NCBI GenBank assembly: GCA_031414775.1
Contig: JANOQI010000048.1
Span: 45,232 to 109,231 of the forward strand
DNA: 64,000 nucleotides
Direction: 5' to 3'
Source of the DNA: Synechococcales cyanobacterium VAR_4_metabat_354
GTDB lineage: Bacteria > Cyanobacteriota > Cyanobacteriia > Cyanobacteriales > Chamaesiphonaceae
Shown: piece after piece, positions 54,268-64,000 of the stretch
Numbering within the stretch: the first letter of the stretch is position 1
How the letters are laid out: each line of letters opens with the position of its first letter
The notes under the pieces: generated by a model
Told to the model about the DNA's origin: nothing
The model's database searches: none
Seen by the model: the letters and a program-made list of their open reading frames with translations, nothing else
Made by a program: the position numbers and the translations under genes

Positions 54268-54582
54268 CAGAATTGAATTGACTAGTGAAACTTGCCAGTG
54301 AGGGGTTCATCAAAGTCTGGCACGGTGGCGAGCATTCTAAACCTCACGGTGACTTCTTTGTCTTCGTACTATCCTAAATCTTGCTGAAAATACATAATAG
54401 ATATAACTAGCTACTATGGTAGCCATAACATTTTATAGAAACCATTTGAGGTCTGTAGCGTAATTTTAGGCATTAAATCGCTTTGAGCAAATCGTAAGTT
54501 TTTGATAATAATAGTATTTGATCTGATGTAAACTGGGGATATTAGGTATCGGCAGTAAAAATACGATCAGGAGAAGAGCATT

Positions 54583-55431
54583 ATGGGGCAGCTATCAAAG
54601 CGCATTAGCCGGGTGGTTCAAGCCGAGATGAACTTCAGTAAAAGTGATTGTGATGAAACTTACCTGAACAAAGGAGCTGCCTTAGTTGCTGGAGGAGCGG
54701 TTACAGGTGCTTCTATTGGCAAGGTTGGAATATTAGCAGGTGGGACAGGCTACGGCCTCGGTGCTGTGCCACTCGCTGCCGCTGGTGCATTAACAGGTGC
54801 CGCCCTTTACGAAGTGCTGCGATCACTCATTGAAGGTGACACTTCCTCTGCAAGCGCTGCGGCGATTGGAGCAGCAGCAGGTGCAGCAACTTCAGCAACG
54901 ATTGGAGGAGTTGGTGTAGCTGTTGGTGGAAGTGCGATTGGGATTGGTATGGCTTCAATGGCAGTAGGTGGAGCCGTAGTTGGGCTGGGTTTAGTTGGCT
55001 TAAATCGTCTGCTTCAGCAAGGCATCGATCCAGAGGAGCTTTTGGATAGTGCGATCGAGCAGATGGAAGCAGACTTACAGAACGCACGAAAAGCAATCGT
55101 CAATGTAATTGCCAGCCAGAAGCGACTTCAACAGCATTACGAACAGGCGCAAGCGGAAGTCAATAAATGGGAACGGCGGGCATGGCTCGCCCTGCAAAAA
55201 GGAGATGAGTATCTGGCGCGGGAAGCTCTGATTTGCAAGGGGACGCACTCTGGAATTCTCAGCAGCCTTAAAGTTCAGCTCAATCAAGAACCAGCTGCGG
55301 TTAAAAAACTTAAACAAAATCTAACTCTTCTAGAAGCCAAGATCTCTGAAGCAAAAACTATGAGAAACAGTCTGAAGGCGCAGATTGCAGCTGCTAAGCT
55401 AAATAGGCAGTTGTCCAGTATTAAAAAGTAA
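54583..55431 (+). CDS. PspA/Vipp1 (IM30)-family protein with glycine-zipper insertion
   Basis: AGGAG RBS; helix0 MGQLSKRISRVVQAEMN, about 110 aa Gly/Ala hydrophobic insert, then DPEELL...WERRAWLALQKGDEYLAREAL...LEAKISEAKT. Confidence 0.88.
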   Translation: MGQLSKRISRVVQAEMNFSKSDCDETYLNKGAALVAGGAVTGASIGKVGILAGGTGYGLGAVPLAAAGALTGAALYEVLRSLIEGDTSSASAAAIGAAAGAATSATIGGVGVAVGGSAIGIGMASMAVGGAVVGLGLVGLNRLLQQGIDPEELLDSAIEQMEADLQNARKAIVNVIASQKRLQQHYEQAQAEVNKWERRAWLALQKGDEYLAREALICKGTHSGILSSLKVQLNQEPAAVKKLKQNLTLLEAKISEAKTMRNSLKAQIAAAKLNRQLSSIKK

Positions 55432-55450
55432 ATTTTTGGAATTATAGAAG

Positions 55451-56608
55451 ATGCGTCAGGAATTTTTGAATCGCTTGCAAGAAATTTTGTATGAAAAAGT
55501 AAGAGGAGGCTGGAGAGATGGATGGGTTTATGATAAGTTAAATCAAGAATTTACGTTACAACAAGATGAATTAGAGGAGATGGCTCGGAGACTAGGATTC
55601 AAAATGGGTTGGAATGCTCCGCTTAAGTCACTTTTAGAAGGGCAATGGCAGCGAGAAAGAGTTCACAGTAAACCAAAAAACATTATGACTGATAACTCTT
55701 GGCATGGCGTTAGTCTTGAAAAAGAATTGCAACGAATGAAAGAGGAGCTAAAGCGATCTGGGAGAAAAATACCAGGTAGCCTAGATAACTCATTTGATGA
55801 TTTAGCTGATGTTTCCGATAAGCTCAGTAACTTAGTAGGAATGCAGAATGTGAAGGACGACATTCACACTCTTATTAACTTTTTGAAGATTCAAAAAATG
55901 CGAGAAGTAGAAAATCTACCCAGTATTTCTGTTACCTTACATTCTGTTTTTTGTGGACCACCTGGCACAGGTAAAACGACAATCGCTCGTTTGATGGGTG
56001 GAATATACAAGCAGTTAGGTGTACTTTCAAAAGGGCATGTTGTTGAAACAGATCGCTCAGGGTTGGTTGCAGGTTATATTGGTCAAACAGCAATTAAGGT
56101 AGATAAAGTAGTCGAGTCAGCTTTAGATGGCGTACTATTTATTGATGAAGCTTACACATTGGCACCTGAGAATGCTTCTTCTAAAGACTTTGGGCAAGAA
56201 GCGATTGATACTTTGCTTAAAAGAATGGAAGACAATAAAGACAGATTAGTGGTTATCGTTGCTGGTTACAGTGAAGAAATGTCGCATTTCATCAATGCTA
56301 ATCCTGGCTTGCAATCACGTTTTAATCGATACTTTAACTTTCAAGACTATAACCCTGATGAATTACTAGTAATTTTTAGAGAAATTTGTGAGAAAAGTCA
56401 TTTTAATTTGGCTGAGCCATCCAGAGATGTTTTACTCAAGAAATTGACGCTTTTGTACGAAAATAGAAATGATAGATTTGGAAATGGTAGATTGGTGAGA
56501 AATATTTTTGACAAAACTGTTGAGAAACAGGCAAATAGATTATCTAAGCTATCTAAAGTTAGTAGAGAAATGCTAATGACAATTTCTCCTGAAGATATTC
56601 CTGAATAA
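55451..56608 (+). CDS. AAA+ ATPase, SpoVK/CbbX/EccA family
   Basis: LVGMQNVK, GPPGTGKTTIAR, LVAGYIGQTA, VLFIDEAY, IVAGY, NPGLQSRF, FGNGRLVRN. Confidence 0.93.
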   Translation: MRQEFLNRLQEILYEKVRGGWRDGWVYDKLNQEFTLQQDELEEMARRLGFKMGWNAPLKSLLEGQWQRERVHSKPKNIMTDNSWHGVSLEKELQRMKEELKRSGRKIPGSLDNSFDDLADVSDKLSNLVGMQNVKDDIHTLINFLKIQKMREVENLPSISVTLHSVFCGPPGTGKTTIARLMGGIYKQLGVLSKGHVVETDRSGLVAGYIGQTAIKVDKVVESALDGVLFIDEAYTLAPENASSKDFGQEAIDTLLKRMEDNKDRLVVIVAGYSEEMSHFINANPGLQSRFNRYFNFQDYNPDELLVIFREICEKSHFNLAEPSRDVLLKKLTLLYENRNDRFGNGRLVRNIFDKTVEKQANRLSKLSKVSREMLMTISPEDIPE

Positions 56609-56735
56609 GATTGACAATTGCATGAAGTTTCTCCGTGCAATATCTGACAATCGTGCATAAGTAGACCAATACCGAATCTATTAACGATCATCAAAATCAA
56701 TAACTGAAATACTTAATGATCATTTGTGAGGAAAT

Positions 56736-56939
56736 ATGCTGAAAACGGTTTGGGCTAGGATTCGTCAAGGAAAAATTGAACTTCTGGAGTCAACAGAGCT
56801 TCCCGAAGGAACAAGGGTGCTAGTAACGCTGCTTCCTGATGATGAAGCTGGTTTTTGGCTAGAAGCGAGTCAAAAATCATTAGATGCCGTATGGGATAAT
56901 ACTGAGGATGATGTATATGCTCAGCTACTCCAAACATGA
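56736..56939 (+). CDS. putative antitoxin (DUF104/AF2212-like)
   Basis: GKIELLE..LPEGTRVLVT core, WDNTEDDVY tail; overlaps the toxin start. Confidence 0.75.
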   Translation: MLKTVWARIRQGKIELLESTELPEGTRVLVTLLPDDEAGFWLEASQKSLDAVWDNTEDDVYAQLLQT

Positions 56940-57246
56940 CATTATTTTAGTTCGCTATCCATTCTCGGACTTGTCGAATTCCAAAGTGAGACCTGCGGTT
57001 GTGATAAGCGCACCACACCCTTCTCAAGATATTCTGATCACGCCATTGACAAGCAAAGTGGGATCGTTGATTGAAGGTGAATTCGCGCTTTCTGAATGGT
57101 CGGCAGCAGGACTAAACGTATCTACGGCAGTCAAGCGAGGTGTGTATACAGTACATGGGAGTTTGGTGATAAAGGTGATTGGTAAGTTAGCTGATGTGGA
57201 TGCAGAACGGCTAGAACAGTCTTTGAAAGGTTGGCTGGGATTGTAA
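56917..57246 (+). CDS. PemK/MazF-family toxin
   Basis: DIILVRYPFSDLSNSKVRPAVV and PLTS motifs. Confidence 0.88.
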   Translation: MLSYSKHDIILVRYPFSDLSNSKVRPAVVISAPHPSQDILITPLTSKVGSLIEGEFALSEWSAAGLNVSTAVKRGVYTVHGSLVIKVIGKLADVDAERLEQSLKGWLGL

Positions 57247-57390
57247 TATGCGCCGACTTTTGGGTGCCCAGCAGAGATTCGGTGGTGGATCGAGCAGCCG
57301 GGATGAATTCTGGGTGAGAGCTGACTTGGCAGATCGACTTGGCCTAAACTTAGGAAACAAATAAAATGATTACGCCAGTCATGTTTTTAC

Positions 57391-62732: not shown

Positions 62733-63752
62733 ATGAATGCAGTCGAAATCGAAGAAGCTGTTTCTGGGCTGGCAGAGGCACCCTTTGACCCAGAAACTTT
62801 CCCTTTTGCTTTTTTGCGGAGGATACGAATATTTTTCATAGTGAGGGGTTGTTTACGAATACGATCGCGCAGATGAGTGATGGGATGAATACTCATGAGG
62901 TGCTGTCGGAGATGTTTCGATCGATGTGTACGCTGCCTAAGGAGCGGGATGCAGAGGGGATTCGTAATTGGGCTAATGGGTTTCCCTATGTGAATGGGGG
63001 GTTGTTTTCGGGTGGGGTGGAGGTGCCGCGCTTTAGTAAGATTGCCAGGTCTTACCTGATCCATGTGGGGAATCTGGACTGGAAGAAGATCAATCCTGAT
63101 ATTTTCATGATGAGGAGCGCGGGGCGTTGGGGATGCACTATACGAGTGTGCCGAATATTCTCAAGGTGTTGAATCCGCTGTTTTTGGATGAGTTGCGATC
63201 GCAGCTTGAGGCGGCGGGAGATAATGGGCGGAAATTGTTGAATTTGCGATCGCGGATGGCGCGGATTCGGGTGTTTGATCCGGCTTGTGGGTCGGGGAAT
63301 TTTTTGGTGATTGCGTATAAGGAGATGCGGGGGATTGAGGCGGAGGTTAATCGGCGGCGGGGGGAAGCCGATCGCCAGTCGGAGATTCCGCTGACCAATT
63401 TTCGGGGGATTGAGCTACGCCATTTTTCGGCGGAGATTGCCCGGTTGGCATTGGTGATTGCTGAGTATCAATGCAATGTGCTTTACCTCGGACAGCAGGA
63501 GGCTCGATCGATGTTTCTGCCGTTGAAAGAAGATAACTGGATTACTTGTGGGAATGCGTTGCGATTGGATTGGTTGAGTCTTTGTCCACCGACGGGGATG
63601 GGGGTGAAAGTACAGGGTGAGGATTTGTTGAGTTTGTTGGATGACCAAGCGGAGGTTGATTTTGAGAATGAGGGCGGGGAAACGTATATCTGTGGCAATC
63701 CGCCGTATCTTGGATCGACTTGGCAATCTAACGAGCAAAAGGAAGATTTAAC
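62733..63752 (+). pseudogene. MmeI/YeeA-like type IIL restriction-modification methyltransferase, fragmented
   Basis: MNAVEIEEAVS start; FAEDTNIF; FPYVNGGLF; INPDIF; frameshift to LGMHYTSVPNI; DPACGSGNFL (motif I); GNPPYLG (motif IV). Two frame breaks, and truncated before the target-recognition domain. Confidence 0.88.
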
Positions 63753-64000
63753 GGAATCAGCAAAAGTCCCTACGCTCAGCGGAGCGGCGTAGGGATGGAT
63801 AGCGAGTGAGTTGACGATTGTGCCGCTCGCGAGATGCAAAGCACAGCTAGCAGTAGATGAGCGGTGCATGAGGAAACGAACAAATCCCTTGCATTTTCTT
63901 TGCACATCGATGACAATATTATCAACAACCTTAGTTAATGATAATGTATCAAGCTTACAAATTCCGACTAGATCCGACAGCCGAGCAGCAGCAGTATTTT
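63753..64000 (+). mobile_element. IS200/IS605-family element, left end (continues beyond window)
   Basis: Subterminal hairpin TCCCTACGCT/GGCGTAGGGA (63767-63795) with AAAG at its foot, followed by a tnpB start; left boundary approximate. Confidence 0.75.
63944..64000 (+). CDS. tnpB: TnpB N-terminus (partial, runs off the window)
   Basis: MYQAYKFRLDPTAEQQQYF matches the AYKFRLYPTxEQ N-terminal motif of IS605 OrfB; alternative ATG at 63938. Confidence 0.75.
   Translation, partial: MYQAYKFRLDPTAEQQQYF

Follow-up and report, generated by a model that had tools for sequence, protein, structure and literature searches.

Vipp1/IM30 and PspA are bacterial ESCRT-III proteins (PF04012), and reviews call the control of the disassembly of their polymers unclear (PMC7619361, PMC13051332; here and below, statements refer to the accessible parts of the papers cited). 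According to a 2025 review, a Vps4-like ATPase for PspA/Vipp1 appears to be absent from bacteria (PMC7619361). The known route of Vipp1 polymer remodelling is HSP70B-CDJ2 (DnaK/J-protein), and the Vipp1 partners named in the accessible part of a 2026 review are Hsp70/CDJ2, VIA1, FLAP1, a PPR protein and VPL2, with no AAA+ ATPase among them (PMC13051332). Ravi et al. described PspA adjoining tandem-AAA proteins as well as cyanobacterial PspA repeats and NlpC/P60 fusions (PMC11237479). Here, a window of 64,000 nucleotides (nt) from Synechococcales cyanobacterium VAR_4_metabat_354 (contig JANOQI010000048.1, positions 45,232 to 109,231) was analysed, in which a PspA/Vipp1-family open reading frame (ORF1) precedes an AAA+ ATPase (ORF2). 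An earlier note on this DNA had placed both on the same strand with 19 nt between them, which agrees with the coordinates and with the PF04012 match; the two reading frames are separate. As with PspA and its PspF or tandem-AAA neighbour, a PspA-family protein stands beside an AAA+ ATPase. In contrast to PspF, an NtrC-type transcription activator, and to the neighbour with two AAA domains, ORF2 combines one CbbX-like ATPase with an alpha5-like helix. We tentatively favour the reading that ORF2 docks by helix mimicry on the hairpins of Vipp1-family proteins and caps or remodels them, mostly in trans. The locus provides a candidate ATPase for Vipp1, together with a predicted docking site and the helix of 12 residues that would bind there.

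ORF2 has the AAA+ core, the pore-loop tyrosine, the arginine finger and the AAA_lid_6 domain in common with CbbX (the red-type Rubisco activase), SpoVK and EccA, and it matches PF00004 and PF17866 (AAA_lid_6). Unlike these proteins it bears a Vipp1-like N-terminal helix and stays below three NCBIfam cut-offs, scoring 276 against 422.95 for SpoVK (TIGR02881), 245 against 466.65 for EccA (TIGR03922) and 223.6 against 459.25 for CbbX (TIGR02880). The motor motifs reported in the earlier note are present and intact (Table 1), and Arg347 is present in addition to the arginine finger Arg290. CbbX is the closest solved relative by sequence (E 1.5e-53) and also the closest fold match (3syk; Z 26.2, root-mean-square deviation 4.5, 271 aligned residues, 39% identity). 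Vps4 entries reached Z 14.7-16.0 with 15-17% identity, in line with the former statement that the ATPase lies outside the Vps4 clade. No Pfam match to an MIT domain or Vps4_C was obtained for ORF2 at E<=0.1, the N-domain fold not having been searched alone. The likeness to Vps4/CdvC would be a functional analogy only, in which a short helix links an AAA+ motor to a protein of the ESCRT-III fold. The logic would be reversed, since the helix sits on the CbbX-like ATPase ORF2 and the helical binding surface on the client. Tyr294 and Tyr336 of ORF2 align with His198 and Arg239 of CbbX, which we take to be residues of the ribulose-1,5-bisphosphate site. Rubisco or type VII secretion genes were not recognised in the flanks of ORF2. 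CbbX threads its client. By analogy with the CbbX fold and from the conserved pore tyrosine, a hexamer, threading and remodelling may be expected for ORF2 as well.

The helix of ORF2 and its conservation were seen directly. It follows shortly past Met79 with the pattern (I/V/L)-(D/E)-x-E-L-x-x-(L/M)-K-x-x-L, and Glu92 is invariant in 27 rows. The AlphaFold2 model shows a helix at residues 85-102 between low-confidence linkers, which form a flexible tether in the model. A profile trained solely on segments of alpha5C (69) and alpha6 (70) from full-length homologues of ORF1 gave 12.8 bits for the ORF2 motif (p 0.0015 against the proteome). At p<0.05, this profile matched the N-termini of 30 of 37 clade members when the proteome served as background and of 31 when shuffles did, compared with 0/10 more distant ATPases; in each group one row with too short an N-terminus was left out. 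The clade helices reached a median of 14 bits and at best 21, the alpha5C of the genome's own Vipp1 23. Compared with 225 coiled-coil-like windows, 28 of the 37 helices scored above the 95th and 24 above the 99th percentile. A reverse profile from 24 ATPase motifs, applied to 996,597 windows, ranked the C-terminus of a TIGR04376 protein second, alpha5C of the own Vipp1 third and Vipp1 alpha6 ninth; rank one was ORF2's own helix and is not independent, as close orthologues were in the training set. Together with six upstream residues, the motif was nearest to alpha5 of a class of WD40 and J-domain proteins (WD40-J; median 16.5 bits vs 8.2 and 9.3), the motifs of this comparison having been pre-selected with the first profile. 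The TIGR04376 protein (L180:2732-3304; G000:C42:92731-93303), whose end shows this alpha5-like motif too, is by its sequence a candidate for a second partner or for the donor of the motif.

Co-folding, a check which the earlier note had suggested, was carried out with the ORF1 hairpin (residues 146-282) and residues 78-125 of ORF2. It gave a weak pass with 0.46 vs 0.02 for the best control, at a predicted local distance difference test (pLDDT) value of 61 for the partner, and the runs shared at least 71% of the contacts. Of the calibration pairs, 116 of 157 solved and 2 of 215 mismatched ones reached the mark; 18 of these solved pairs and both mismatches lay at 0.60 or below. The pass may stem from the likeness to solved Vipp1/PspA polymers. 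Binding of the ORF2 helix to a Vipp1-family hairpin is weakly suggested by this model. The former proposal that the ATPase acts on the Vipp1-family protein thus remains plausible through the helix match and the co-fold, but draws no support from the adjacency of the genes. In Vipp1 itself, alpha5C/alpha6 is the part that contacts the hairpin.

ORF1 has the alpha1-3 hairpin in common with Vipp1/IM30 and PspA and starts with an alpha0-like helix. It differs from Vipp1/IM30 by a 119-amino acid (aa) insert rich in glycine and alanine (GLY) between alpha0 and alpha1 and by the lack of alpha4-6. Furthermore, it is a sporadic accessory gene, whereas the canonical Vipp1 of this genome (260 aa; ORF1 is 45% identical to it) is encoded on another contig. 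Foldseek with the ORF1 model ranked Vipp1 first (E 4e-7). The alpha0-like helix is recognisable by a sequence match at low pLDDT; Phe5 of the full-length relatives is a serine here, and the insert separates the helix from alpha1. The truncation of ORF1, which was seen directly, had been overlooked in the earlier note: the match to PF04012 (103 bits, cut-off 33.9) covers only profile positions 14-153 of 220. The polymer-contact elements alpha4-alpha5 are missing; alpha4-5 are present in full-length family members (P0004 matches up to position 217). A homologue search yielded 117 proteins among 7,995 candidates, mostly of about 380 aa. Of these, 97 extend at least 60 residues past the end point of ORF1, and some of the remaining 20 may be contig-end fragments. 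The DNA identity to the closest full-length genes is 92% and breaks off at about 55409, and no copy of the lost tail was found elsewhere in the genome. Judged from the sequences, ORF1 is a 3'-truncated copy of this family.

Vipp1 without alpha5/6 forms neither rings nor filaments (PMC8281802). The glycine-zipper PspA polymer formerly proposed for ORF1 conflicts with this report and with the absence of alpha4-6. Judged from domain content and the same paper, ORF1 is unlikely to polymerise alone, because alpha5, required for the Vipp1 polymer, is missing. An alpha0-3 fragment of Vipp1 still gives puncta in Synechocystis (bioRxiv 10.64898/2026.02.28.708693), and the Vipp1 hairpin binds membranes (PMC13051332). 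A PspA 1-144 fragment with solved structure (4whe) is contained in the Foldseek match list. Hairpin-only forms with the Gly insert occur naturally: among 27 other loci with GLY-bearing Vipp1 genes, 19 hold full-length paralogues and 8 hairpin-only genes.

The junction between both genes was examined in four sequencing runs of the 20 listed, from four studies apart from the possible source. It is spanned by two contigs, one of 3,816 nt from X5 (about 94% identical) and one of 300 nt from X10. A contig of X9 extends from ORF1 up to the base preceding ORF2, and for X11 no bridging piece was found among the pieces listed. An assembly artefact as origin of the junction is ruled out by the bridging contigs from two other studies. 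One frameshifted gene was likewise ruled out, as the reading frames of the two ORFs differ and none of the ORF1 homologues matches ORF2. In X5 both frames are open and ORF2 carries an in-frame 45-nt deletion. The ORF1 alleles of the window and of X5, both truncated, show 37 differences in 818 nt. For the 35 differences listed, 15 non-synonymous and 20 synonymous, the ratio of non-synonymous to synonymous rates (omega) is 0.24-0.27, with p from 6e-5 to 4e-3 depending on the assumed transition bias; full-length family pairs gave a similar omega of 0.36. An omega of about 0.25 suggests that the truncated gene is under purifying selection and not obviously dead, and a plain pseudogene is disfavoured by this value.

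In the mechanism which we tentatively favour, the ORF2 helix would dock on the alpha1-3 hairpin of a Vipp1-family protein. A hexamer with several such helices could occupy alpha5 sites on Vipp1-family polymers and cap or loosen these, and the ATPase would then extract or unfold subunits by pore threading. As the ATPase stands alone in all 25 other loci examined, its usual client (canonical Vipp1, a paralogue or the TIGR04376 protein) would probably be encoded in trans. In the window lineage, an insertion would have set the ATPase behind a Gly-insert Vipp1 gene deprived of alpha4-6. On its own, the leftover hairpin cannot complete the canonical contact of the polymer. It was likely retained as a membrane-associated hairpin, which may co-assemble with or cap Vipp1 and would offer a free docking site to the ATPase helix. 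ORF1 lacks exactly the helix that is present on ORF2, which may explain the persistence of the junction. Should the helix fail to bind hairpins, the locus would be no more than a commonplace accessory region containing a shortened gene.

Several results weigh against this mechanism. The motif-bearing ATPases form one clade (support 92/91), so that their count reflects one origin, albeit of a motif retained across at least seven families. The motif comprises just 12 residues and fits alpha5C and alpha6 equally (12/24 each), and alpha6 is dispensable for the Vipp1 polymer (PMC8281802). Seven of the 37 clade members fail the helix test, most of them with other N-termini. ORF2's own motif is among the weaker ones, and one hairpin segment scored 13.2 bits. 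The co-fold score lies in a band which is oftener wrong than right unless the guess is likely beforehand. ORF1 departs from its full-length relatives at conserved-looking sites (F5S, Q201W, R218C, K220G). The differences between its alleles are clustered, and recombination with full-length alleles could mimic selection. Near the ATPase, no Vipp1, GLY or TIGR04376 gene was found in 25 loci of 7-13 kb. Co-occurrence of the ATPase with GLY was not enriched in a sample of 400 genomes of the order (7/33 vs 49/367, Fisher p 0.20; kin are not independent).

In this sample the ATPase was detected in 33 genomes (E<=1e-85) and the GLY domain in 56 (E<=1e-13); the 7 genomes with both carry them on separate contigs and in none are they adjacent. 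A 400-genome sample of the phylum gave the same picture. Conversely, the ATPase was near Gly-insert Vipp1 genes in 0/27 distinct other loci, 26 of which had at least 1 kb of downstream DNA, mostly 5-8 kb. The conserved two-gene module of the earlier note is contradicted by these counts, and a conserved operon is ruled out by the 0/27 and 0/25 loci. The pair is a local arrangement of one lineage, seen directly here and known only from strains 94-96% identical to the window strain. The unrelated genomes examined are without it, but it is not confined to this genome, as the junction recurs in the close relatives X5 and X10. The genes repeatedly found next to the ATPase are of housekeeping and toxin-antitoxin type (labels read from the sequence, without a baseline).

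With both genes solo in unrelated neighbourhoods, they could be chance neighbours: a deletion or insertion would have cut a solo Gly-insert Vipp1 gene beside an unrelated solo ATPase, and the helix would derive from domain shuffling and serve self-association or another partner. A different GC content (0.497 for ORF1, 0.366 for ORF2; genome 0.456) fits such an origin. It also confines the AT-rich character formerly ascribed to the block to ORF2. The breakpoint is abrupt, and the family breaks elsewhere too, a Gly-insert Vipp1 family gene being split into two ORFs in L024. None of 11 same-genus genomes has a strong ATPase match, and one of the same genus (G005) holds a full-length ORF1 homologue in another setting without the ATPase clade. 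We nevertheless consider chance neighbours rather doubtful, since the reverse profile recovers Vipp1 alpha5C/alpha6, the co-fold passes weakly, the truncated gene appears to be selected, and both frames have stayed open in the 94%-identical relative despite the deletion in ORF2.

The GLY insert matched no Pfam and no PHROG family. Its hydropathy reaches 1.8 over 19 residues, and its AlphaFold2 model is unreliable. With a GLY profile, 299 representatives out of 1.84 billion were matched at E<=1e-3, and from its sequence contexts the insert is read as a mobile cyanobacterial module. In one class of 525-625 aa (30 distinct proteins), GLY is joined to a segment resembling Vipp1 alpha4/5 and to a WD40 propeller; most of these proteins (22) have a J domain as well. 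Genes of this GLY-WD40-J class lie at L061:4952-6811, L062:5700-7472, L066:5260-7041, L069:5398-7149, L080:4859-6634 and others, with HPD in the J domain. This class, and not AAA+, is the recurrent neighbour of Gly-insert Vipp1 genes (3/27 loci). Such genes stand directly 5' of it in L061 and L062, and hairpin-type genes without GLY stand near it in L069 and L195-L197. In the genome of the window, tblastn found no GLY-WD40-J gene. The family is widespread in cyanobacteria, its genes often lie 3' of a Vipp1 paralogue with a hairpin, and it is, by its domains, a candidate DnaK adaptor for Vipp1 polymers.

These arrangements would also suit a young dedicated split-Vipp1 module, in which the GLY-anchored ORF1 (alpha0-3) and the ATPase as alpha5 mimic are complementary halves of a membrane-bound remodelling platform. 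Hairpin-only and GLY-WD40-J genes would complement each other likewise at another locus. The correspondence between the lost part of ORF1 and the extra part of ORF2, their close spacing, the selection after truncation and the co-fold result point in the same direction. However, the pair is limited to close strains, the other eight hairpin-only genes have no ATPase, and promoter-like sites at the locus are at chance level (7 vs 6.3), which makes such a module improbable. A repeat scan of the locus gave nothing exceeding chance.

A broader extension of the docking reading is a cyanobacterial accessory layer to ESCRT-III by alpha5 mimicry, which we regard as somewhat unlikely. The CbbX-derived AAA+ clade, found in about 8% of the sampled genomes, and the GLY-WD40-J family would both use an alpha5C copy as docking peptide, and the ATPase would be a convergent Vps4 counterpart. 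The ATPase clade would pull subunits out directly, and the GLY-WD40-J family would recruit DnaK. Compared with HSP70B-CDJ2, ORF2 would act without Hsp70, whereas the GLY-WD40-J proteins would suit that route. The window locus would be a snapshot of the ATPase pairing with a hairpin-only, membrane-anchored Vipp1.

The locus exposes Gly-insert Vipp1 paralogues, hairpin-only forms and GLY-WD40-J proteins, for which no published account was found. In a literature search with most subscription papers outside its scope, no report joining Vipp1 with CbbX/SpoVK or with WD40/J-domain proteins was found, and nothing on a Vipp1 glycine zipper, TIGR04376 or CbbX-like membrane remodeling. In the accessible main text of PMC11237479 the words glycine, WD40 and DnaJ do not occur, nor do CbbX, SpoVK, WD40, DnaJ and HNH in part 2 of 3 of its supplement. 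A search for PspA-AAA fusions returned, among the best 120 of 7,988 longer proteins, only multi-AAA proteins by the Pfam domains listed. Among 150 representatives of GLY proteins no Walker A match occurred, and all Atlas structure matches of a full-length ORF1 homologue had a template modelling score below 0.5.

An anti-phage or abortive system, as proposed in the earlier note, would require the ATPase to set off membrane damage by the hydrophobic Gly-zipper insert. The patchy distribution, an insertion site common to a toxin-antitoxin pair and the hydrophobic, Gly-rich character of the insert are compatible with this, as is the coupling of an HNH nuclease gene to short GLY-only genes at several other loci; HNH is absent here. 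PADLOC (PADLOC-DB 2.0.0), however, assigned 0 families to ORF1 and to the full-length P0004. For ORF2 it gave weak, partial ATPase matches of at most 41 bits (IetA-type up to 39.6 bits), and the two genes downstream of ORF2 matched 0 families. The separate IteA score of ORF2 is 32 vs a cut-off of 510. Since, in addition, the pair is not conserved and the ATPase neighbours are housekeeping and toxin-antitoxin genes, an anti-phage function of the locus is unsupported, and we consider it very improbable. The GLY-only genes (133-144 aa) are translationally coupled to an HNH nuclease gene of 120-125 aa in L192, L194, L195, L206, L207, L208 and L064, and in P0090 an HNH domain is fused to a Gly-insert Vipp1. 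From this gene order, the GLY-only and HNH pair might make up a toxin or defence module of its own.

Table 1 Features of the ORF1-ORF2 locus (positions in the window)
Feature	Positions	Strand	Remarks
Accessory block	54268..57390		Inserted between FemAB-like/GNAT gene and S-adenosylmethionine (SAM) methyltransferase gene
ORF1	54583..55431	+	282 aa; truncated Gly-insert Vipp1 paralogue: alpha0-like helix, GLY insert, alpha1-3 hairpin, no alpha4-6
alpha0-like N-terminal helix	54583..54633	+	AlphaFold2 helix 3-15, low confidence; compared with P0004 and the canonical Vipp1 of this genome
GLY insert	54664..55020	+	119 aa, 47% Gly+Ala, two internal repeats; AlphaFold2 pLDDT mostly <50
alpha1-3 helical hairpin	55021..55428	+	AlphaFold2 helices 150-205, 209-281; pLDDT mostly 82-98, lower at ends
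Truncation junction and 19-nt spacer	55405..55450	+	Similarity to full-length genes ends; blastn to L021, L022 stops at 55409
ORF2	55451..56608	+	385 aa; CbbX/SpoVK/EccA-like AAA+ ATPase
Four-helix N-terminal domain	55451..55666	+	No known family; AlphaFold2 block pLDDT 82-93
Met79	55685..55687	+	Start of 4/5 closest orthologues (307 aa; P0121-P0124)
Vipp1 alpha5C/alpha6-like helix	55715..55750	+	Residues 89-100, LEKELQRMKEEL; flanked by two low-confidence linkers
Walker A	55955..55978	+	ORF2 residues 169-176
Pore-loop Tyr209	56075..56077	+	Aligns with CbbX YIG tyrosine; invariant in 27 rows
Walker B	56132..56149	+	ORF2 residues 228-233
Arg finger Arg290	56318..56320	+	Aligns with CbbX Arg194; invariant in 27 rows
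Passenger toxin-antitoxin pair	56736..57246	+	Weak AF2212-like antitoxin match and PemK/MazF-like toxin

The four-helix N-domain of ORF2 occurs in 2/300 genomes, both times fused to the same ATPase. With its GFKxGWN motif it is fused to the ATPase in G071, G424 and G581 and is a gene of its own in G034. Its residues 37-48 form a second alpha5-like segment (14.0 bits) inside a folded helix. A sub-clade of the ATPases carries a long charged coiled-coil N-terminus in place of the short helix (L090, L092, L095, L097, L184:3689-4885), and G683 encodes both types of N-terminus 3 kb apart. A link of the coiled-coil N-termini to GLY proteins was dropped, as it consisted of one short match. A second CbbX-like ATPase (G000:C4:39367-40773; 468 aa, core 51% identical) has a different N-domain, falls outside the motif clade and sits among toxin-antitoxin-type genes.

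Further observations concern the GLY family. An FrhB-like gene (below cut-off), presumably BciB/divinyl reductase, adjoins GLY-family genes in L061, L062, L063, L065, L074, L193, L195, L199, L200, L201, L204 and L205. This repeated neighbour suggests, from gene order, an ancestral variable locus for GLY-family genes. Vipp1 paralogues with internally duplicated hairpin segments were seen in P0008, P0032, P0041, L069:4608-5414 and L197. The genes at L029:7807-12344, 3' of a Gly-insert Vipp1, resemble what we take to be E1-like, ubiquitin-like and E2-like proteins.

The site of the accessory block is empty in G003 of the same genus. There, the genes on either side of the block adjoin directly with a 4-nt overlap and enclose no other DNA, and therefore the block is an insertion. 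In G007 the toxin-antitoxin pair adjoins the methyltransferase gene too, and the contig ends just upstream. At 62849-63792 of the window, near the contig end, fragments of an adenine DNA methyltransferase lie in two frames, with weak PglX-type matches far below cut-off.

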